A stretch of 64,000 nt of DNA from a phage (GCA_014435945.1 GCA_014435945.1_4088.1), one strand, 5' to 3'; positions 9,103 to 52,732 are shown, numbered from the stretch's first letter. The notes: generated from the sequence alone by a model not told the origin. A program made the numbers and translations.

Positions 9103-9457
9103 AAAAGTAATATTTCTTTTGAATACAAGAAGCTCTTTATATAAGGAATTCAAAGATAATGATGGTTCTTTTAAACCATTATGTATAGAATTCAATGATT
9201 TAATTACAGATGCATTGTTTGAATTTTCAGAGAAATATCAAGATACCGTGTTTGGTGTTAAGAATGTTATTAGTCCAAGTTCAAGGAAGATAACGTTATC
9301 TCATTTTACATTTGACAATAAAGATTTATTCAGTTATAATCCTAGTACATCTTTATATTTTATTCCTAAAGGAGAAAAGAATAGTCCTATTCATTACGGA
9401 TGGATTATATCTTATACAATAAATGGAACGGAGTATCCTATCAAATGGCACGATTAG
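9068..9457 (+). CDS. hypothetical protein (129 aa)
   Basis: ORF in tight series; overlaps upstream gene by about 35 nt. Confidence 0.55.
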   Translation: MNMNPEIVQDLKKVIFLLNTRSSLYKEFKDNDGSFKPLCIEFNDLITDALFEFSEKYQDTVFGVKNVISPSSRKITLSHFTFDNKDLFSYNPSTSLYFIPKGEKNSPIHYGWIISYTINGTEYPIKWHD

Positions 9458-23907: not shown

Positions 23908-24441
23908 ATGTTAGATAAAATAAAGAACGAGGGAACTCTATACAATCATCTTAAGTTGGATACGTTCGAGGCAGCAATCAGTACTGCACAAGATATAATT
24001 GATATTATCAAGTACATTAAAGAAAATAAGTTAAAATGTGTGAAAACGCCAGAACGTACAATGTACAAAGATGACGACCTTCACGTATCAGTTGTTAAGC
24101 CAAAAGATAAGGATGGTAATAGAGATTTCTATAATAACAGTGGACAGTATGAATGTGAATATGATCCCGAATTTAGAGGTGGATTCATGTGCTTCAGTAA
24201 AACAGATACTTCACATGTTGAGATACGTACATTAAAAGGTCTAGGTAGATTTGAGTTCATGGATATAGAACTAAATGAAGAAAACTACTTCCAACAATCA
24301 TTACTTAATACTGAATACAATTTAGGTGTACTATTCATGTACAAGTACTTATATGAGCACTTAAATGAAGACTTCTATCTGGACTTAGAAGATTACCATT
24401 TAGTATGGAAAGAAATGGTAGAACTTCGTGAGAACTCTTGA
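23908..24441 (+). CDS. hypothetical protein, paralog family 2
   Basis: motif NEENYFQQSLLNTEY; start at ATG with GAGG RBS (ORF-track start 23851). Confidence 0.6.
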   Translation: MLDKIKNEGTLYNHLKLDTFEAAISTAQDIIDIIKYIKENKLKCVKTPERTMYKDDDLHVSVVKPKDKDGNRDFYNNSGQYECEYDPEFRGGFMCFSKTDTSHVEIRTLKGLGRFEFMDIELNEENYFQQSLLNTEYNLGVLFMYKYLYEHLNEDFYLDLEDYHLVWKEMVELRENS

Positions 24442-24467
24442 CACCCTCCAAATCTTTGTGATATAAT
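24438..24467 (+). promoter_or_regulatory. sigma70-like promoter
   Basis: TTGACA 24438-24443, 18-nt spacer, TG-extended TATAAT 24462-24467. Confidence 0.55.
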
Positions 24468-40386: not shown

Positions 40387-40911
40387 ATGTCGAAGAAGGA
40401 TGCTTCGAAGAAAAAACAATCAGTACATTTCAGTACTGGAAAAGATAACTGGACTACTCCAAAGGATTTCTTTGAAGATTTGGATGAACTCTGGGAATTT
40501 ACACTAGATGCAGCGTGTGTCAAAGAAACTGCATTGTGTGATAAGTTCTTTACACCAGAAGACAATTCACTTGAACAGGACTGGGGAAACAATATCGTGT
40601 GGCTCAACCCACCGTACAGTGATTTGAAAACGTGGTTATCTAAGGCAGTTGATGCATATAACAAAGGTGCTACAGTACTGATTCTCGTACCATCAAGAAC
40701 TGATACTATAGCCTTTCAGGATTATGCTGCGAAAGTTTGTGATTGTATTTGTTTTATAAAAGGTCGCTTAAAGTTCGGTATCCCTGAAGAACCAGATAAA
40801 AAGACGGACAGTGCTCCATTCCCTAGTTGTTTAATAGTACTGGATAAGTATTTGACTCCAGCTAAAATCAACTATCTTAAATCTATTGGTCAGGTGATGA
40901 AGAACATATGA
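40387..40911 (+). CDS. DNA N6-adenine methyltransferase (phage Dam family)
   Basis: AAGGA RBS; motif region WTTPKDFFEDL...FTLDAA...VWLNPPYSDL...ILVPSRTDT matches the phage N6A-methylase family with its NPPY catalytic motif. Confidence 0.8.
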   Translation: MSKKDASKKKQSVHFSTGKDNWTTPKDFFEDLDELWEFTLDAACVKETALCDKFFTPEDNSLEQDWGNNIVWLNPPYSDLKTWLSKAVDAYNKGATVLILVPSRTDTIAFQDYAAKVCDCICFIKGRLKFGIPEEPDKKTDSAPFPSCLIVLDKYLTPAKINYLKSIGQVMKNI

Positions 40912-41441
40912 AAGAAACATGCGTAGTGACATTCGGAAGAATTAACCCTGTACATCGAGGTCATGGTTTAGTGTTTGAAAAAGCTCAAGCACTACAAGAA
41001 CAGTACAATGCTGATTTGAAAATATTCCTTAGTACCAGTACTGATGCCGTCAAAAACCCATTACCTCCTGAACTGAAAATGTACTATACAGAAGGATTTT
41101 ACCCATCTGTACAAGAAAATATCTATACAGAAGATAATCTGTTTGATATAATGAGAGAACTGGATGGAAAGTACTTAGATGTTCTTTTCATATGTGGTTC
41201 AGACAGACTTGAACCATTCCAAAAAACGCTTGACACGTACAATGGGAAGTTATATAATTTTTGTTCAATCAAGGCAGTTCAAGCTGGAATTGATCGAAAT
41301 GTAAGTCGCTACAGTTCCACACAGATGCGTGAGTTTGCCAAGAATGAAGATTTTAATAGCTTCAGTACTTTTCTACCTGGTAATGATGATGCACTGAAAA
41401 CTAAACTATTTGAAGATGTAATAAAATACATGAGGAAATAA
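40908..41441 (+). CDS. nucleotidyltransferase (HxGH cytidylyltransferase superfamily; NMN adenylyltransferase-like?)
   Basis: N-terminal TFGRINPVHRGH is the (T/H)xGH signature; ATGA overlap with methyltransferase gene. Confidence 0.6.
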   Translation: MKETCVVTFGRINPVHRGHGLVFEKAQALQEQYNADLKIFLSTSTDAVKNPLPPELKMYYTEGFYPSVQENIYTEDNLFDIMRELDGKYLDVLFICGSDRLEPFQKTLDTYNGKLYNFCSIKAVQAGIDRNVSRYSSTQMREFAKNEDFNSFSTFLPGNDDALKTKLFEDVIKYMRK

Positions 41442-41737: not shown

Positions 41738-42017
41738 TGATTCGAATCTAACAGGTTATTTTTTACAAGAATCAATGATCAAATTCAGTGAACATTTTCC
41801 AGTACTAGATGGTGTGGAGATGTGGCATGTAAAACCACTCTTCCACACTTTCAGTAAAGAGCACAAAATGTTATTGACTGAGGCTTGTAAATCGAATAAA
41901 ATATGCCAAATCAAGATTGGTGTAAATGTCTACAAAGGATTAGTCATCTTTTTTGACAACAACAGCAACTACTTTTATATTGTTAAGGAGCATTACGTTG
42001 ACAAATACAAATACTAA
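41730..42017 (+). CDS. hypothetical protein
   Basis: ORF-track ORF 41709..42017 trimmed to ATG overlapping upstream stop; stop codon lies inside a hexamer repeat. Confidence 0.5.
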   Translation: MSDDSNLTGYFLQESMIKFSEHFPVLDGVEMWHVKPLFHTFSKEHKMLLTEACKSNKICQIKIGVNVYKGLVIFFDNNSNYFYIVKEHYVDKYKY

Positions 42018-42615
42018 TACATACTTTCGTTATCTTCGCCTAGGGCTTTCCCTACGCCCAATCCGTGGTAAGTGTGATTCACTTGCTGATTTGGATTATG
42101 CATATGCATTACATTGTGATGGTGTTCAATATGTATTAGGTGACTATGGCACATTCGAAGAATCCAATGACAGTTCAGAAATTATTGCTGGTGTTGCTAA
42201 CCTTAACAACATTGCCAATAGTTCTCGTCATGAAATCGTTCTTGAAATTCAGAACTTCATTGAGAAAAATACTGGCAAGCGTACATGGTCATATGTCGGT
42301 ACTGATGCACAAATGTCAATCGCATTTGGTAACGAAGATGGTTATGTAGCACAACTTATTATGGATTTCGAATCAGAAGAGAAGTTCCTAGAATACAAGG
42401 AAAAAATCATCCAATCCTTGTTGCAAATGGGTATTCCTGAAGATCGTATGCCTGAAATTCAAAGCATTGATGAGTTTGTTCTTATCCCATCTGATGAAAA
42501 ATATGATGCGATGTTTACAGCACTGAACATTCCTGGTGTAGTTGTTGAGTACTTCGATGATGGTGATGCTGACATTTACCTAGATCTCGACGACGATGAT
42601 GACGATGATGAATAA
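41953..42615 (+). CDS. hypothetical acidic protein with poly-Asp C-terminal tail; start unresolved
   Basis: ORF opens with TTG, no in-frame ATG for about 100 codons; ends DLDDDDDDDE; terminator follows. Confidence 0.5.
   Translation: MTTTATTFILLRSITLTNTNTNTYFRYLRLGLSLRPIRGKCDSLADLDYAYALHCDGVQYVLGDYGTFEESNDSSEIIAGVANLNNIANSSRHEIVLEIQNFIEKNTGKRTWSYVGTDAQMSIAFGNEDGYVAQLIMDFESEEKFLEYKEKIIQSLLQMGIPEDRMPEIQSIDEFVLIPSDEKYDAMFTALNIPGVVVEYFDDGDADIYLDLDDDDDDDE
42001..42024 (+). repeat. tandem hexanucleotide repeat at gene junction
   Basis: ACAAAT ACAAAT ACTAAT ACATAC; contains the stop codon of 41730..42017. Confidence 0.5.
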
Positions 42616-42621
42616 TACATA

Positions 42622-42649
42622 TAGCCCGACATAAGTTCGGGCTATTTTT
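42622..42649 (+). terminator. rho-independent terminator
   Basis: TAGCCCGA-loop-TCGGGCTA then TTTTTG. Confidence 0.7.
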
Positions 42650-42661
42650 GTAAGGGGAAAT

Positions 42662-42931
42662 ATGAATTACAAACATATACAATTCACTTATATGGAATTA
42701 TTTAAATTACACCATAATCACAGAAGTACTAACACAATTAATAAAAATGCGTTTACTCATAAATTATGGTCAAATTACCTAGAAGAATTACGTGAGTATT
42801 TTATTGATACTGAAATTTTCATTAATGGAAAAAAACGAAAGATACTTAGAGTCGATAGTTTTGGTGGTAGATTAGTACTTTCATATAAATTTGATAACGA
42901 CTTATTCTCTGTTGATTTGGTGAATATATGA
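42662..42931 (+). CDS. hypothetical protein, tandem paralog family 3 (QFTYK motif)
   Basis: N-terminus MNYKHIQFTYMELFKL. Confidence 0.6.
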   Translation: MNYKHIQFTYMELFKLHHNHRSTNTINKNAFTHKLWSNYLEELREYFIDTEIFINGKKRKILRVDSFGGRLVLSYKFDNDLFSVDLVNI

Positions 42932-43188
42932 ATTATAAAGATTTCCAATTAACATTCAAGTGCATTCGTGACCTAGCAAATAAAAATAATAGTATATTTT
43001 TAGAAGATACATGTATTGAAATGATTAATATTGTGCGTGAGAGGATTAAAGAAAAATTCAGTACTGTAATTATCAACAACGATCATGCAGAATTTTCAGA
43101 TATAATCATTAAGCTCGATGGTAAAGTAGAGGTACAGTTCTACACTGATTTTGGATTTACGAGTGTTCCTCTGGAGATATTCCCTTGA
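42928..43188 (+). CDS. hypothetical protein, tandem paralog family 3
   Basis: N-terminus MNYKDFQLTFKCIRDL. Confidence 0.6.
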   Translation: MNYKDFQLTFKCIRDLANKNNSIFLEDTCIEMINIVRERIKEKFSTVIINNDHAEFSDIIIKLDGKVEVQFYTDFGFTSVPLEIFP

Positions 43189-43496
43189 AATTAAATTTGA
43201 ATGATGTTCAATTCACGTATAAAAATATATATGGTTTGTATGACATGTATCTTTTTAGTGGGAAGATTGGTGAACATGTCGAATCAAAAGAATCACCATT
43301 TATTAATAATTACTATGATTACTTAGATTCTATTGCTGAATATATAAAAAAGAATTACAGTACTTACACTGATGGAGATGATATATTCGAATATTCAGGT
43401 GTAAAATCTTATCAAGGTATTATCCATGTAGAATTTCTTGAAAAAACTGATAGGGAATTTATGGAGATTAAAGTTTTGAAGTTAACGGACCTATAA
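43185..43496 (+). CDS. hypothetical protein, tandem paralog family 3
   Basis: N-terminus MKLNLNDVQFTYKNIYGLY. Confidence 0.6.
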   Translation: MKLNLNDVQFTYKNIYGLYDMYLFSGKIGEHVESKESPFINNYYDYLDSIAEYIKKNYSTYTDGDDIFEYSGVKSYQGIIHVEFLEKTDREFMEIKVLKLTDL

Positions 43497-43506
43497 GAGT
43501 TGACAT

Positions 43507-43818
43507 ATGAATATTAATGATATACAATTCACATACAAATTTTTGTATATCCAATACGCTACGGTTGATGCTGGAGAATATCTCTACGGTGAAATCTATC
43601 GTTCGGTATGGATAAAGTTTTTGGATGAATTACATGAATATTACCATGATTTGTGTATAGTTCGTGATAATAAAATATACAAATTCCGCGATATTGTTAG
43701 TCATAGCGGTAAGCTACGATTGGAATTAAGTACTGATAGTGATGTTGATTGGATTGGTGTAAATTTACTGGAGTTGGAGAATGAAAAACAACTTAAAGGA
43801 AATACAAGTATTTTATAA
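43507..43818 (+). CDS. hypothetical protein, tandem paralog family 3
   Basis: N-terminus MNINDIQFTYKFLYIQY. Confidence 0.6.
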   Translation: MNINDIQFTYKFLYIQYATVDAGEYLYGEIYRSVWIKFLDELHEYYHDLCIVRDNKIYKFRDIVSHSGKLRLELSTDSDVDWIGVNLLELENEKQLKGNTSIL

Positions 43819-44065
43819 ATTCTTATACTTGTCATATGTAAAAGATGAGTACTATGAAAGTGTGTATTATTTTTTATGGCAACATTACCGTACTATAGTA
43901 AGAGATTTATATATAGGAAAATCTATCATATCCAATGGTGAAAAATGTATATGTACGGATGTCGTGAGTTATAATGGTTCTTTAACACTGTGTTTCAGAT
44001 GCGTTAATAATAGTGGGTCATTTTCATTAAACATATATCAGTTAGAAGGAATAAATTTTGAATAA
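43781..44065 (+). CDS. hypothetical protein, tandem paralog family 3
   Basis: N-terminus MKNNLKEIQVFYKFLYLSY. Confidence 0.55.
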   Translation: MKNNLKEIQVFYKFLYLSYVKDEYYESVYYFLWQHYRTIVRDLYIGKSIISNGEKCICTDVVSYNGSLTLCFRCVNNSGSFSLNIYQLEGINFE

Positions 44066-44258
44066 ATGTCCATATTGCAACAGTACTCAATTAGCTCGTT
44101 TCCGTTTAGATTCAGACTGGGCCTCTGGTGCTGGGGATTTCTTTCCTATCAATGATGATGCGGAATACACTGAAGAACAGCACAAAGATTTCGATAAATC
44201 ATGGCGACCTGACATTGAGTGCATTTATTGTCTGGCATGTGAGCGTATTCATGACTAA
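44058..44258 (+). CDS. small zinc-ribbon protein
   Basis: CPYC ... CIYCLAC double CxxC pair; no in-frame ATG so probable TTG start with GAAGGA RBS. Confidence 0.5.
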   Translation: MNKCPYCNSTQLARFRLDSDWASGAGDFFPINDDAEYTEEQHKDFDKSWRPDIECIYCLACERIHD

Positions 44259-44514: not shown

Positions 44515-44801
44515 ATATCATATTAATACAAAAAACATATGCTCTACTGATGAAAGAATATACTAATACTTATGATGAAAAGTGTAGTGCAAATCATCAT
44601 ATGTATAAATTCATTACTCAAGAGTACAGGGATTATATATATGCTGCGTTAGTGGGTAGATATTTCAGTACTAAAAAACGAAAAGAACTAAAAGTTGTGG
44701 ATGTTACATTTTTCTACAACGGGCATATAACAATTCATGGTGTGGAACATAATTCACAAATATATCGTAACTACTCATCTAACGAGGTAACATTTTTATG
44801 A
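44511..44801 (+). CDS. hypothetical protein (96 aa)
   Basis: ATGA overlap; faint similarity to family 3 (IQKTYALL). Confidence 0.55.
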   Translation: MNIILIQKTYALLMKEYTNTYDEKCSANHHMYKFITQEYRDYIYAALVGRYFSTKKRKELKVVDVTFFYNGHITIHGVEHNSQIYRNYSSNEVTFL

Positions 44802-44971
44802 GAGCATTATTTTTTATCTGGAGTCTTTTCTCACTAGCAGTACTGACAGTAAGTGGGATTTGTTTCCTTTCAACAATGAATGTCTGGTACATTAATTTAC
44901 TATTCCCATTCGTAGGTGTAGGTTTAGGATTTACTTTACATAGTGTTTGTAAGGATTTTAATGGCAAATAA
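44798..44971 (+). CDS. small membrane protein (57 aa, two predicted TM helices), below the ORF-track cutoff
   Basis: ATGA overlap with upstream stop; encodes MRALFFIWSLFSLAVLTVSGICFLSTMNVWYINLLFPFVGVGLGFTLHSVCKDFNGK. Confidence 0.5.
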   Translation: MRALFFIWSLFSLAVLTVSGICFLSTMNVWYINLLFPFVGVGLGFTLHSVCKDFNGK

Positions 44972-45245
44972 ATCGAATGAAGTACTTGTTGCTGAAACAA
45001 TGAAGATGGTTTATGCCATAACAACTAGTAATGATATGTCTTACCCAATTAAGTCCAAGTTGAGGGATATAACTCTTCAGGTTATACAGCAGTACTACAA
45101 ATCTAAACACAAAAGTATTATTAATGTTTATCGTGACTATGAAAGGATTCGCATTTTGTTCTGGAACAAGAATCGAGTTCGTTCGGAATGTGATATAGAA
45201 AACTTTAAATTTGAGAATCTTTATTGTTACAGAGCGGGACAATAG
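44961..45245 (+). CDS. hypothetical protein
   Basis: ORF-track ORF 44943 trimmed to ATG overlapping upstream stop. Confidence 0.55.
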   Translation: MANKSNEVLVAETMKMVYAITTSNDMSYPIKSKLRDITLQVIQQYYKSKHKSIINVYRDYERIRILFWNKNRVRSECDIENFKFENLYCYRAGQ

Positions 45246-45263
45246 CTCAAGTAGTGATATAAT
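45236..45263 (+). promoter_or_regulatory. possible promoter (extended -10 only)
   Basis: TG-extended TATAAT 45258-45263; weak -35 GGGACA. Confidence 0.35.
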
Positions 45264-45303
45264 ATTGGATGAGGAACAATAACTAACACAAGGAGTGTGT
45301 AAA

Positions 45304-47943: not shown

Positions 47944-48207
47944 ATGAATATCCAAGATAGATTGCAATTATTGCACACACTTGAAGAAGCTGCTTTTGAA
48001 CTTGTTAATAAAATTGCACAAGAACTCCCAAAAGGAACCAAAGTTCGTGTTCGTGAAATGGATTATTTAACGGGAAAAATTGATGAAAAAGTTCTAACAG
48101 TGATCAAAGTAACATACTATGAATCAGAGTTATCAATTCAATGTAATTCAGATAATGGTTACGTTTCCTACTATGGTACAGATGTAGATATAGAGGTAAT
48201 AAAATGA
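47944..48207 (+). CDS. hypothetical small protein (loose family 4)
   Basis: ORF-track ORF 47899 trimmed to ATG after upstream stop with GGTGG RBS. Confidence 0.55.
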   Translation: MNIQDRLQLLHTLEEAAFELVNKIAQELPKGTKVRVREMDYLTGKIDEKVLTVIKVTYYESELSIQCNSDNGYVSYYGTDVDIEVIK

Positions 48208-49346
48208 CCCTTTTACAAATATATGAAGATTTAATGCACTTATGTAATACCCGTGAGGCTTTCTTTTATGTGGATCATAAAAGTCCTGCTGGTGGAACAT
48301 ATCGTGTATTCAGTTATCGTCTAGCATCATATACCGATTTCATGCAACCCAATGCATTAGAAACCCGTGGTTCTATGTGGGAAATTGATGAAGACGGTGA
48401 TATGATTCGTTGTGCTGCTCGTACTATGAAAAAGTTCTTCAATGCTTACGAAAATCCTGCTACAATGTTCCCTGCTGATACCTCATTCGATGACATTGCA
48501 GTAGTGATGCCTAAGTTGGATGGTTCAGTAATCAGTACTTACCGTGATAATGATGGTGTAATTCGTTGTAAATCACATACTGCATTGTATTCAGATCATG
48601 CGATTAACAGTACTCGTCTTCTCAATGAGAACCAAAATTTGTATCAATACATTGACGAAGCAGACCGTTTGGGCTATACTGTTAATCTGGAGTATACAAG
48701 TCCAGAGTACCGTATTGTATTACCATACCAGGTTGAACAATTATTTGTACTAAACGTTCGCCATCGCAAGAGTGGTGAACTATTATGTGGTTCTGCATTA
48801 CGTAATAAGTTCCCATGCCTTGCACAGTACAGTACTAACATGACAGGTAAAGATATTCATTACACTTTCCCTGCTCGTGCTACATTCAAAGAAAGTGTTG
48901 AAGAAGTTAAGAAAATGCTTGACATTGAAGGTTTTGTGTGCATCCTAAATAATGGTACAATGTGCAAAATCAAAACCGACTGGTATTGTTCTTTGCATTT
49001 AACGAAAGACAGTATTATAATCGATTCCCATTTATATGAAGCTGTATTAAATGGTTCGAGTGATGATTTAAAACAGTTGTTCAGTACTGACGAATATGCT
49101 ACCCAAAAGATATTAAGAATGGAACAACTAGTCTTTTCGTGCTATAATGCTTTACAAGATGAAGTTGAAAGCTTCGTCAAGGAACACAAGCACTTGGAGC
49201 GAAAGGAATTCGCTAAGAAGGTTCAGGAGTGTTTAACTAATGAACTGAATCGTCAGGGCTTGGCCTTTGCAATGTACAACAATAAGAAAGTCGATTACAA
49301 AGAGACTCTTATTAAGTACATGAAAATTGTACTAAAGGATTTTTAG
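48204..49346 (+). CDS. rnlA: RNA ligase 1 (T4 RnlA-like)
   Basis: N-terminal region ...CNTREAFFYVDHKSPAGGTYRVFSYRLASYTDFMQPNALETRGSMWEID closely parallels T4 RnlA; nucleotidyltransferase motif I KLDGS. Confidence 0.85.
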   Translation: MTLLQIYEDLMHLCNTREAFFYVDHKSPAGGTYRVFSYRLASYTDFMQPNALETRGSMWEIDEDGDMIRCAARTMKKFFNAYENPATMFPADTSFDDIAVVMPKLDGSVISTYRDNDGVIRCKSHTALYSDHAINSTRLLNENQNLYQYIDEADRLGYTVNLEYTSPEYRIVLPYQVEQLFVLNVRHRKSGELLCGSALRNKFPCLAQYSTNMTGKDIHYTFPARATFKESVEEVKKMLDIEGFVCILNNGTMCKIKTDWYCSLHLTKDSIIIDSHLYEAVLNGSSDDLKQLFSTDEYATQKILRMEQLVFSCYNALQDEVESFVKEHKHLERKEFAKKVQECLTNELNRQGLAFAMYNNKKVDYKETLIKYMKIVLKDF

Positions 49347-50168: not shown

Positions 50169-51101
50169 ATGCCAACTATCACACTAACAGTTGGATTGCC
50201 AGGGTGTGGTAAAACTACATGGGCAGTGCAAGAGATTAAAAAAGCCAAATCCAAGACTATCAACATCAACCGTGATGATATTCGTGAATCTATGGCTGGG
50301 TCACATGATGCTTACAAATTCAACGATGCTAATGAGCAGTACGTAACTAATTTACAGTTCAGTGCAGCAAATTCAGCCGCAGAGAATGGTTGGAACATCA
50401 TCATATCCGATACGAACCTTAAACAACATTTCCGTAATCTATGGAAAGTATGGGCTACAGATAATGGTTATGATTACAAAGAAAAGAATTTCTATGATGA
50501 TTTTGTACCTAATGAAGACCGTGGTGCAGATGTTCATGAATTCTTTAAGATTAAAGAGTTCGTAAAACTTTGTAAGAAATATAACCTCCAGCGTGAGCGT
50601 TCAGTACAAGATAATATCATTGACACTATGGCAGATACGTACTATTATAGTAAGGCATTACACATTGGTTACTATGGTAATTCACGCGAAGCTGCTATTA
50701 TCGTTGATATCGACGGTACTCTTGCTCATAAATGGGGACGTAACCCGTTCGATGAAAGTACTGTTCTCCAGGACACACCAGACGAAGAAGTTATTTTGTC
50801 TATTATCGCAGAAGCAGTTTTTCATAAACGCAAGATTATCGTCATGAGTGGGCGTACTGAAGGGTGTCGTGCTGATACCGAACAGTGGCTTAAGAATTGG
50901 GGTATTCCTTACGATGCATTGTTTATGCGAGACATTGATGATAAACGTCCTGATGATGTTGTCAAATTCGACCTGTACATGAAAAATGTGGTTGATCATT
51001 ACGATGTTAAAAAGGTATATGATGACCGCAATCAAGTTGTGTTCATGTGGCGTAAGTTACTTGGGTTGAAAGTTTTTCAAGTGGCTGAAGGAAATTTCTA
51101 A
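50169..51101 (+). CDS. pseT: polynucleotide 5'-kinase/3'-phosphatase (T4 PseT-like)
   Basis: P-loop GLPGCGKTT in N-terminal kinase domain; HAD phosphatase motif DIDGTLA; C-terminus VFQVAEGNF parallels T4 Pnk. Confidence 0.85.
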   Translation: MPTITLTVGLPGCGKTTWAVQEIKKAKSKTININRDDIRESMAGSHDAYKFNDANEQYVTNLQFSAANSAAENGWNIIISDTNLKQHFRNLWKVWATDNGYDYKEKNFYDDFVPNEDRGADVHEFFKIKEFVKLCKKYNLQRERSVQDNIIDTMADTYYYSKALHIGYYGNSREAAIIVDIDGTLAHKWGRNPFDESTVLQDTPDEEVILSIIAEAVFHKRKIIVMSGRTEGCRADTEQWLKNWGIPYDALFMRDIDDKRPDDVVKFDLYMKNVVDHYDVKKVYDDRNQVVFMWRKLLGLKVFQVAEGNF

Positions 51102-51168: not shown

Positions 51169-51327
51169 ATGTTATTACGAAAAGACTACTTAGAAAATAT
51201 AGAACGATACTATAGATTGTCTTTGTATGAAAATAAGCATAAAAATTATAGTTTTGATAAACTACTAAATTCTAGTACTGAAGATTATCTATTTTCATCA
51301 ATGTTTTATGTGAGAGGATTATTGTAA
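51169..51327 (+). CDS. hypothetical small protein (52 aa), below the ORF-track cutoff
   Basis: open frame from ATG 51169 (or GTG 51151) to TAA overlapping next ATG; no clear RBS. Confidence 0.3.
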   Translation: MLLRKDYLENIERYYRLSLYENKHKNYSFDKLLNSSTEDYLFSSMFYVRGLL

Positions 51328-51587
51328 TGGATAAATTTCACACAGATATATCACAGATAGGTAATCTTATCAATAGTCTAATTACTGATTTAGAAGAAAA
51401 GTACTTAGGACGAAATGTATACTTAGAAATGTATGAAACATATGGTGTTATTGATATGATTTATTACAGTGCATTGAAGTATGAAATACGTTTAACTGTA
51501 TGTTTATATGAAAAAGGTACATTTAAAAGAAGTACTGCAATTCGCCAAGTTGGAGTTGATGACATGGAATTATACGAGGAACACTGA
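51327..51587 (+). CDS. hypothetical small protein (loose family 4)
   Basis: ORF; EEKYLGRNVY pattern. Confidence 0.55.
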   Translation: MDKFHTDISQIGNLINSLITDLEEKYLGRNVYLEMYETYGVIDMIYYSALKYEIRLTVCLYEKGTFKRSTAIRQVGVDDMELYEEH

Positions 51588-51838
51588 TGTTTGAGCAGGA
51601 CTTAGAGCTATTCAAAAGTTATGTCGAGTACTTAGTTACATTAGAAAAAGAGCTAACGACAAAGTACAAAGGTATTCGTGTTCTGTGCTGGTATGATGAT
51701 TCGGATTATAAACGTGAACTCACCATTGACCGAATCTATTTCATCGACGGTGTATTGAATGTGCATGGTGTAAATGATTTTGGACATTCATATACTTATT
51801 CGAATAATGCTAAATTCAAGAGGATTGACAATGAATGA
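51587..51838 (+). CDS. hypothetical small protein (loose family 4)
   Basis: ORF; TTKYKGIRVLCW pattern. Confidence 0.55.
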   Translation: MFEQDLELFKSYVEYLVTLEKELTTKYKGIRVLCWYDDSDYKRELTIDRIYFIDGVLNVHGVNDFGHSYTYSNNAKFKRIDNE

Positions 51839-52133
51839 GTACTATCAAAATTTATTCAATTACATAAAACTAATAGATGATCTTGCTTTCGATTTTCTTA
51901 GTACTGATAAAGTTGGTGAGCCTTTATATTATGATTGTATTGGAACACTTTGTTCAGATGAAAAGAATATATTAGAAAATAAATTACCGTCATCACAGTG
52001 CTTAATCAATGGTTCCAAAGCAGTAATAACTGATGTTAATTTTTATAAATCTCTTAATACTATTTGTTATGTATTCAATAACACTGTGTTTAAACATGTA
52101 ACAAGTAATATTAAATCTGTGAGGTTCTTATGA
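51831..52133 (+). CDS. hypothetical protein
   Basis: ORF-track ORF 51774 trimmed to ATG overlapping upstream stop. Confidence 0.5.
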   Translation: MNEYYQNLFNYIKLIDDLAFDFLSTDKVGEPLYYDCIGTLCSDEKNILENKLPSSQCLINGSKAVITDVNFYKSLNTICYVFNNTVFKHVTSNIKSVRFL

Positions 52134-52426
52134 ATTTAAAACTTTTGTTAGAACAGGTACATTTATTGTATAGCTGTGCTGATGGTTCTGATAAGGAGTA
52201 TAGTGAAGTTTATTTAGAACTGTTTAGAACGGAAATACACATAATTAGAAGATACTTAATTGATAATAAAACTGAAGTAAAAGTTAGATACCATAATGGT
52301 ACTTTAAAGAATGGTATAATTATTGGATTGATAGTTACACGAATGTCTAGTAATATTAAAGTTGCAGTTAGATTAATGACTGATGATGGTGTCTACACCA
52401 TAGAAGTAAGTGAGATTATATATTAA
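52130..52426 (+). CDS. hypothetical small protein
   Basis: ATGA overlap. Confidence 0.55.
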   Translation: MNLKLLLEQVHLLYSCADGSDKEYSEVYLELFRTEIHIIRRYLIDNKTEVKVRYHNGTLKNGIIIGLIVTRMSSNIKVAVRLMTDDGVYTIEVSEIIY

Positions 52427-52732
52427 ATGGATATACAAACATTCAATAAACTAAAGTACTATGACAATGGTTTTGCTATTATCATTGATGAACTAGATGG
52501 AATACCATATGAGTATCATAATGATGTAATGAAGATAGTAAAAAGTATTTGTAATGATTTAAAAACTATTTTCGAAAATGAATATGTATACGACTTAGGT
52601 ACAAACAATAAGAAACTATACATAAAGAAATTCTGTGGAACGCATTGTGGTCTGATGGTTGATTTAGGTTTAAGTGCTGACAACAATTTCGAAGCATGTA
52701 GTTTATATCTGGATGAAATGCGAATCTCATGA
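52427..52732 (+). CDS. hypothetical small protein
   Basis: ATG directly follows upstream TAA. Confidence 0.55.
   Translation: MDIQTFNKLKYYDNGFAIIIDELDGIPYEYHNDVMKIVKSICNDLKTIFENEYVYDLGTNNKKLYIKKFCGTHCGLMVDLGLSADNNFEACSLYLDEMRIS

Follow-up and report, generated by a model that had tools for sequence, protein, structure and literature searches.

The analysed window, a stretch of 64,000 nucleotides from phage assembly GCA_014435945.1 (GCA_014435945.1_4088.1), derives from an Asteriusvirus (121Q-like) jumbo coliphage and carries an array of short genes that almost certainly form a real paralogous family of at least seven members, with copy-number and cassette dynamics that can be described. The first-pass annotation of this DNA had noticed five head-to-tail genes (here g1 to g5, positions 42662 to 44065) whose products begin with the pattern M-N-x-x-D-I-Q-F-T-Y-K-x-L-Y and then diverge. 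All five open reading frames (ORFs) were found at these coordinates on the plus strand, each preceded by a plausible Shine-Dalgarno sequence, and on the opposite strand at g1-g5 there was no ORF longer than 57 amino acids (aa). The pattern proved exact in g4 alone (MNINDIQFTYKFLY), the remaining four having approximate versions of it (MNYKHIQFTYMELF, MNYKDFQLTFKCIR, MKLNLNDVQFTYKNIY and MKNNLKEIQVFYKFLY). In all nine annotated records, including those of 121Q (gp422-426) and phAPEC6 (gp386c-389c), these genes are labelled "hypothetical protein".

Among the window's 388 ORFs of 40 aa or more, phmmer connected g1 with g4 (E = 1e-6), g4 with g5 (1e-6), g3 with g4 (3e-5) and g1 with g5 (4e-5), and a profile made from g1, g3, g4 and g5 recovered g2 at 3.9e-5. 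When Smith-Waterman scores were compared with those of 1000 shuffles, the true score was higher than 1000/1000 of them for these same four pairs, with z values of 10.4 (g1-g4), 12.1 (g4-g5), 9.0 (g3-g4) and 8.6 (g1-g5), and 4.3 for g2-g3; after the N-terminal 16-18 residues had been cut off, the values were 9.0, 5.7, 3.1, 9.9 and 4.0 in the same order. Because the shuffle z persists without the N-terminal motif, the similarity is neither compositional nor limited to QFTYK; low-complexity composition, raised in the first-pass annotation as a possible trivial cause of the N-terminal likeness, is thus not its source, and the tandem paralogous family is borne out by the phmmer, profile and shuffle tests alike. 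Nor do the proteins diverge right after the motif as had been described, since homology runs over the full length, through a C-terminal S-[YF]-x-G-x-L hairpin. The only near-invariant residue is a glycine in this C-terminal block, whose pattern is [VI]-x-S-[YF]-x-G-x-[LI]-x-[LV].

Against the family profile (A4.hmm), g1-g5 gave E values of 1e-23 to 1e-33, and the paralogues are 15-30% identical to one another in amino acid sequence. Likeness between them at the DNA level is reduced to 34-39 nt at the motif (67-79% identity), from which it follows that the duplications are old; the expression "locally amplified" therefore suits the tandem arrangement and misleads as to recency. At the sequence level the family is distinct from the other arrays of the window, as had been proposed: a broad family profile matched none of the arrays at 2.6-6.6 kb and 17-36 kb at E < 0.2.

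Five is too low a count of members. In a metagenomic contig of 9.3 kb (L004), which is syntenic and comes from a more distant relative, one family member precedes the zinc-ribbon gene and at least five follow it, with another two past the 245-aa gene that flanks the locus; because of the members downstream of the zinc ribbon in L004, the window genes in that position were tested. With hmmsearch, A4.hmm, which contains no g8-type sequence, matched the window copy of g8 at 1e-4 and its Turkey5 orthologue at 3e-9, and HHalign of g8 against the family profile gave E = 1.4e-4. For g7, a profile of five sequences from that slot (A6) aligned with the family profile A4 at an HHalign probability of 91.7% (E = 7.8e-7). 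An AlphaFold2 model of g7 (predicted local distance difference test, pLDDT, 71.5) has the same H-H-E-E-E-E-H topology as the model of g4, but since paralogues were in the alignment, this shows consistency without adding independent evidence; its best matches in BFVD were family entries also found with the g4 model. The earlier placement of the family between a terminator and a zinc-ribbon gene is thus correct in that both elements lie there, and incomplete in that the family continues past the zinc ribbon with g7 and g8 (Table 1).

Table 1 Positions of the array genes and of neighbouring features in the window
Feature	Position	Strand	Remarks
Dam-family methyltransferase	40387-40911		upstream of array
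Intrinsic-terminator-like hairpin	42621-42650	+	GCCCGAC-loop-TCGGGC stem (42621-42645) plus T run; 5 nt past upstream gene, 16 nt before g1
g1, 89 aa	42662-42931	+	family member, phrog_32291 type, isoelectric point (pI) 9.3
g2, 86 aa	42928-43188	+	most divergent among g1-g5, phrog_35943 type; ATG overlaps g1 stop codon
g3, 103 aa	43185-43496	+	phrog_21004 type; TTG start, GGAG 8 nt upstream
g4, 103 aa	43507-43818	+	central member, exact motif; protein modelled with AlphaFold2
g5, 94 aa	43781-44065	+	family member; 38-nt overlap with g4
Zinc-ribbon protein, 66 aa	44058-44258	+	phrog_22354; CxxC...CxxCxxC; embedded in array, not a family member
g7, 87 aa	44251-44514	+	highly divergent member; start taken as ATG 44251
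g8, 96 aa	44511-44801	+	family member, phrog_28826 type
T4-type RNA ligase 1 (Rnl1)	48204-49346		downstream, 3-6 kb range
Polynucleotide kinase/phosphatase (Pnkp)	50169-51101		downstream, 3-6 kb range

An eighth member in the form of g9 (45000-45245) was not supported (HHalign probability 3.5%). It was also noticed that a second run of five plus-strand genes of ~85-100 aa follows directly after Pnkp (51327-52732). Two of these (51774-52133 and 52130-52426) matched the broad profile in hmmsearch at 2e-4 and 1.7e-3, yet reached HHalign probabilities of only 24-34%; they may be very distant relatives that share the helix-helix-beta architecture.

In PHROGs, g3 and g4 matched phrog_21004 (1e-35 to 1e-44), g1 phrog_32291, g2 phrog_35943 and g8 phrog_28826, while the 121Q-type allele of g7 matched phrog_33961. 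These five clusters, all recorded as of "unknown function", contain the same proteins as the array; PHROGs thus divides into five unrelated-looking groups a single superfamily that has one fold and one locus.

The junctions comprise 4-nt overlaps at g1/g2 (ATGA) and g2/g3 (TTGA), a gap of 10 nt at g3/g4 and the long overlap at g4/g5, an arrangement compatible, as far as the sequence goes, with translational coupling of g1-g5. The TTG start of g3 was chosen by independent gene calls as well (P0005). The array has a GC content of 28.5-30%, compared with ~35% in the surrounding genes, and a local GC-skew peak in the window (42600-44000) coincides with this AT-rich part.

The AlphaFold2 model of g4, built on a 24-sequence alignment, had a pLDDT of 81.2 and a predicted template modelling score of 0.73. 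It contains helices at residues 3-22 and 25-45, strands at 49-53, 56-66, 69-75 and 82-86, and finally a short helix (87-92) ahead of a disordered tail. The predicted fold of the family is an antiparallel pair of N-terminal helices that form a hairpin and pack against a beta-meander of four strands. In an alignment of 27 sequences, G68 was invariant and Y10 was conserved in at least 90%, and the conserved positions were mostly aromatic or hydrophobic besides the one near-invariant hairpin glycine. Foldseek searches of BFVD with the g4 model returned family members and two further matches of note: a 96-aa protein of slurp01, probably the g8 orthologue, with template modelling (TM) scores of 0.69/0.73, and an 89-aa protein of phage RaK2 (H6X4R2) with TM scores of 0.61/0.69 (E = 0.027). 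Among solved structures there was no specific match to the fold.

A Pfam scan of 36 members gave no match at cutoff and none that recurred, with no DNA- or RNA-binding domain detected; the weak match of g8 to Phage_Gene33 (E = 0.015) did not recur and was treated as noise. PADLOC gave no match for any family member. The members appear soluble, with a negative or near-zero grand average of hydropathy (maximum +0.36), none of them hydrophobic, and an unremarkable Cys content. Their pI values range from 4.5 to 9.6 and their net charges from -7 to +6, and a DNA-mimic anti-restriction type such as Ocr or ArdA was rejected because the charge is not uniformly strongly negative. Directly after g8, positions 44798-44971 encode a strongly hydrophobic protein of 57 aa (MRALFFIWSLFSLAVLTVSGICFL...), probably with two transmembrane segments, which is 87-95% conserved in 121Q and A4, in contrast to its neighbours.

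Over the 5-kb stretch at the array, Escherichia phage Turkey3 matches the window at 98.5% identity, eight other isolates at 95-98%, and 121Q, PBECO4, slurp01 and phAPEC6 at ~84%; all these nucleotide matches are Asteriusvirus jumbo myoviruses of ~350-385 kb. Genes in the array region lie on the plus strand only. In fEgEco12, whose physical ends have been mapped and whose terminal repeat is ~21 kb (PMC13070987), the array begins ~63.3 kb from the left end.

The profile of the five paralogues found 25 clusters among 5.8 billion proteins, an exhaustive HMMER search of 1.84 billion cluster representatives gave 19 matches, and the broad 36-sequence profile gave 14. In IMG/VR, 121Q was the sole entry bearing the family. 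Each match for which a contig or source record was examined came from an Asteriusvirus-type phage or from a syntenic metagenomic contig, the synteny check having covered the clusters apart from several present in Logan/ENA only (e.g. P0026-P0034, P0037 and P0038). One of the 19 matches, P0031 (1243 aa, 13 tandem repeats; profile E = 1e-12), was discarded as a repeat-summation artefact, as it has no significant single stretch and also matches 15 unrelated Pfam families; it illustrates that repeat proteins can inflate whole-sequence E values through summed weak matches.

The array occupies a defined slot. It lies between a ~204-aa and the 245-aa gene, beside the zinc ribbon, in the window, 121Q, slurp01, A4, Turkey5, vB_Ec-M-J, ph0011, WPEC5 and phAPEC6, and the same position was seen in the metagenomic contigs L004 and L012-L016. 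The backbone around it, in the order Dam, nucleotidyltransferase, a small gene, the ~204-aa protein with an acidic tail, the slot, the 245-aa gene, Rnl1 and Pnkp, is common to RaK2-like jumbo phages, and the 245-aa gene keeps 58-70% identity over this clade (Alcyoneusvirus, Mimasvirus, Eneladusvirus and Xanthomonas phages). In CBB and Serratia phage BF the slot holds an HD-phosphohydrolase and a ~350-aa gene without any family member, whereas in Klebsiella phage Muenster (Alcyoneusvirus) it holds an orthologous zinc-ribbon gene between weakly matching single genes, plus an HD-hydrolase. In an hmmsearch of 84 ORFs, these Muenster genes, gp145 and gp148, matched the family profile with E values of 1e-5 and 5e-6. 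Together with H6X4R2 of RaK2 they resemble the array in their backbone position beside an orthologous zinc-ribbon gene; they differ in having only 1-3 weakly similar copies, of marginally significant homology, with an HD-phosphohydrolase in the slot and one copy annotated as a membrane protein. Since the slot content is genus-specific and the zinc ribbon is shared with Muenster, the array is an old Asteriusvirus-specific expansion around a zinc-ribbon gene that is older still.

Two further observations concern the flanks. An ORF called as 220 aa at 41953-42615 has its true start at TTG 41998, preceded by AAGGAG (MTNTNTNTYFRYLRLGLSL...); its product has a poly-Asp/Glu tail, belongs to phrog_15575 and occurs clade-wide, and a PADLOC match of the 41998-42615 ORF to Cas8c (E = 1e-3, 55 residues) is probably noise. 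Insertions recur at 45246-45294, in the interval from g9 to the 245-aa gene; this hot spot is empty in the window and elsewhere carries a 308-aa "endonuclease" (vB_Ec-M-J), a 495-aa ORF (ph0011) and a 310-aa ORF (a metagenomic relative) (L008 4805-5728; L009 4782-6266; L014 6388-7320), which are probably mobile insertions of the homing-endonuclease type.

The number of members upstream of the zinc ribbon is five in the window, 121Q, A4 and vB_Ec-M-J, three in Turkey5 and one in L004. The alleles are also highly uneven in their divergence. Between the window and 121Q, amino acid identity is 57% for g1, 76% for g2, 71% for g3, 98% for g4, 97% for g5, ~32% for g7 and 56% for g8, compared with 92% for Dam, 86% for the 204-aa gene, 95% for the zinc ribbon and 91% for the 245-aa gene. 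Synonymous divergence (dS) in the flanks of this pair is 1.0-1.7, yet it is 0.013 in g4 and 0.06 in g5, which indicates recent transfer. At 43507-44258, the g4-g5 part is nearly identical to 121Q (L001), the zinc-ribbon gene less so (dS 0.31), and the genes on either side have dS > 1; judging from these values, species-level lineages have recently recombined over this tract of ~0.6-0.75 kb. The reverse pattern was seen with WPEC5, in which the flanks have a dS of at most 0.1, but g4 is only 66% identical (nonsynonymous divergence, dN, 0.23; dS 0.44). With ph0011, g4 and g5 are 59% and 60% identical, and g7 and g8 95-98%. The mosaic pattern across 121Q, WPEC5 and ph0011 leads us to conclude that single cassettes are exchanged by recombination between co-circulating phages. 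With phage A4, g1-g4 share no more than 44% identity and g5 93%.

By the Nei-Gojobori method, dN/dS was 0.2-0.5 in the family and 0.04-0.12 in the flanks (divergent pairs, of comparable and saturated dS), and the gene-wide value for the family never exceeded 1 in any informative comparison. The genes therefore evolve several-fold faster than their flanks at the amino acid level and are nevertheless constrained, real genes under purifying selection. In phages of the Salmonella SD series, some members are truncated or chimeric (P0024, P0025 and P0036). Recombination between paralogues was considered as the cause, and the evidence for it rejected as unreliable, because conserved genes are fragmented there too: in L020 (Salmonella phage SD-2_S15) and the SD series, a g2/g3 fusion is accompanied by broken Dam and nucleotidyltransferase genes. 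These truncations are as likely to be sequencing or assembly indels as real deletions.

The strong terminator predicted before the array was found as a hairpin with a T run. Its stem and T run are kept in the species-level relatives 121Q, ph0011, A4 and Turkey5, although the loops differ. With 16 nt between the hairpin and g1, there is no room for a promoter belonging to the array itself, and expression is probably by read-through of this conserved terminator, as for delayed-early genes. Two sigma70-like sites were examined and rejected as array promoters: that at 41953-41981 owes its conservation to overlapping coding sequence, and transcription from its predicted start would truncate the following gene's Shine-Dalgarno sequence, while that at 43500-43528 spans the start of g4 and is probably a chance match. 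Perfect TTGACA-N16-18-TATAAT matches occur on the plus strand of the window at 9312-9340, 24438-24467 and 41230-41258, three against 0.32 expected by chance, the last lying inside the nucleotidyltransferase gene; these may be early promoters for host sigma70. An Rfam scan of 40-47 kb gave no match.

Mass spectrometry of phAPEC6 virions identified 62 proteins (PMC7247149 Table 1), and none of gp381c-394c, which include the family orthologues gp384c-389c, is among them (PMC7247149). From this absence, the products probably act inside the infected cell.

Amid the hypervariable array, the zinc-ribbon protein is 88-95% identical across Asteriusvirus, and its gene is linked to family members in Asteriusvirus, in L004 and in Muenster, whose annotators recorded an HHpred match to the ribbons of TFIIS/Rpb9. 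This constant linkage suggests a shared partner or a shared pathway. A Pfam match of the protein to Lar (restriction alleviation; E = 0.41) was neither significant nor recurrent and was regarded as noise.

What the family does can be weighed from these observations. The reading that we favour, tentatively and with slightly less than even confidence, is that the array is a counter-defence or host-takeover arsenal of rapidly diversifying small binders. The members would be non-essential accessory proteins produced in the infected cell, each a small binding module with a conserved hydrophobic scaffold and a diversified surface that would act on a competing genetic element or on some variable target in the host, neutralising or redirecting it, and an arms race would keep the array diverse. 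The wide spread of pI is consistent with diversified surfaces, and genes with known counter-defence functions lie nearby, namely those for Dam, Rnl1 and Pnkp, the last two of T4 type. Rnl1 and Pnkp together repair tRNA and so counter the anticodon nuclease PrrC. The phAPEC6 authors likewise tie Dam to protective methylation and Rnl1/Pnkp to countering Prr (PMC7247149). A more specific proposal, a new modular class of counter-defence with one alpha/beta scaffold and a recombining cassette library, each allele disabling a different E. coli immune system and the zinc ribbon serving as common cofactor or regulator, seems doubtful. A particular anti-CRISPR identity is hardly credible: AcrVA1 (6nmc_B) is the best PDB sequence match of the family profile, over positions 12-90, but at E = 0.98 this is noise, and no significant sequence or structural similarity was found. 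A role in the virion, as decoration or fibre-associated proteins, is also very improbable. Asteriusvirus particles do carry hair-like fibres and numerous uncharacterised proteins (PMC7247149), but besides the missing gp381c-gp394c the array is far from the structural modules.

Nearly neutral ORFan expansion, in which dispensable copies drift under relaxed constraint without specific targets and are tolerated by jumbo genomes, would account for the raised dN/dS, the change from one to five copies upstream of the zinc ribbon, the want of homologues beyond the clade and the AT-richness relative to the flanks. We consider it unlikely, as dN/dS is well below ~1, reading frames are intact in all good-quality genomes, tight overlaps are maintained, and core residues and fold are kept among paralogues of such low identity and in the Alcyoneusvirus relatives. 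Regulation of the phage's own programme, by stage- or promoter-specific adaptors that act with the TFIIS-like zinc ribbon on host RNA polymerase or translation, is an improbable reading as well: the constant zinc-ribbon linkage, the HHpred match in Muenster and the location of the array in a unidirectional block, upstream of genes for replication and repair, agree with it, but such factors are normally single-copy and conserved, whereas alleles of one slot here differ by up to ~70% within the genus, copy number shifts, and the members lack a detectable nucleic acid-binding domain. Competition between phages, or superinfection exclusion aimed at co-infecting related jumbo phages, is quite unlikely. 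Allele swapping among co-circulating Asteriusviruses implies frequent co-infection, and hypervariability suits an arms race of phage against phage; however, no member is predicted to be membrane-bound or secreted, unlike many exclusion proteins. The observations as a whole are compatible with this reading and with the favoured one alike.

In jumbo phages, more than 80% of genes have no assigned function, and this locus offers a compact, well-delimited candidate for the host-interacting part of that gene set. A literature search found no paper discussing the family, whose genes are public as hypothetical proteins and unannotated PHROGs. If its members inhibit host immunity, they would provide a new inhibitor scaffold and help to account for the differing host ranges of therapeutic Asteriusvirus isolates; otherwise, the array would still show clearly how a phage genome evolves in nature by cassettes.

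Two kinds of known system can be set beside the array. Phage anti-defence clusters, such as anti-CRISPR (Acr) loci and the accessory regions of T-even phages with their small inhibitors, resemble it in consisting of small soluble proteins (~90 aa in the array) without enzymatic motifs that are clustered, mosaic and narrowly distributed, and the proximity of Dam, Rnl1 and Pnkp adds to the likeness. These clusters usually combine unrelated genes, whereas the array consists of paralogues of a single fold; it also lacks an aca-type regulator, and its proteins match none of the known Acr and anti-defence families. African swine fever virus (ASFV; MGF110/360/505) and poxviruses (K3L amplification) possess multigene families and "gene accordions" that serve in host range and in evading immunity. 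With these the array has in common 1) tandem paralogues in a genome arm, 2) copy number that differs between close isolates, 3) faster amino acid evolution and 4) a non-structural character. It departs from them in that its copies are old and diverged, with no near-identical recent duplicates, that it varies largely by allele exchange at fixed slots, that its host is bacterial, and that its function is proposed here from sequence. The array, whose fold has no specific counterpart among solved structures, is an uncharacterised case of the tandem, fast-evolving accessory families familiar in large viruses.

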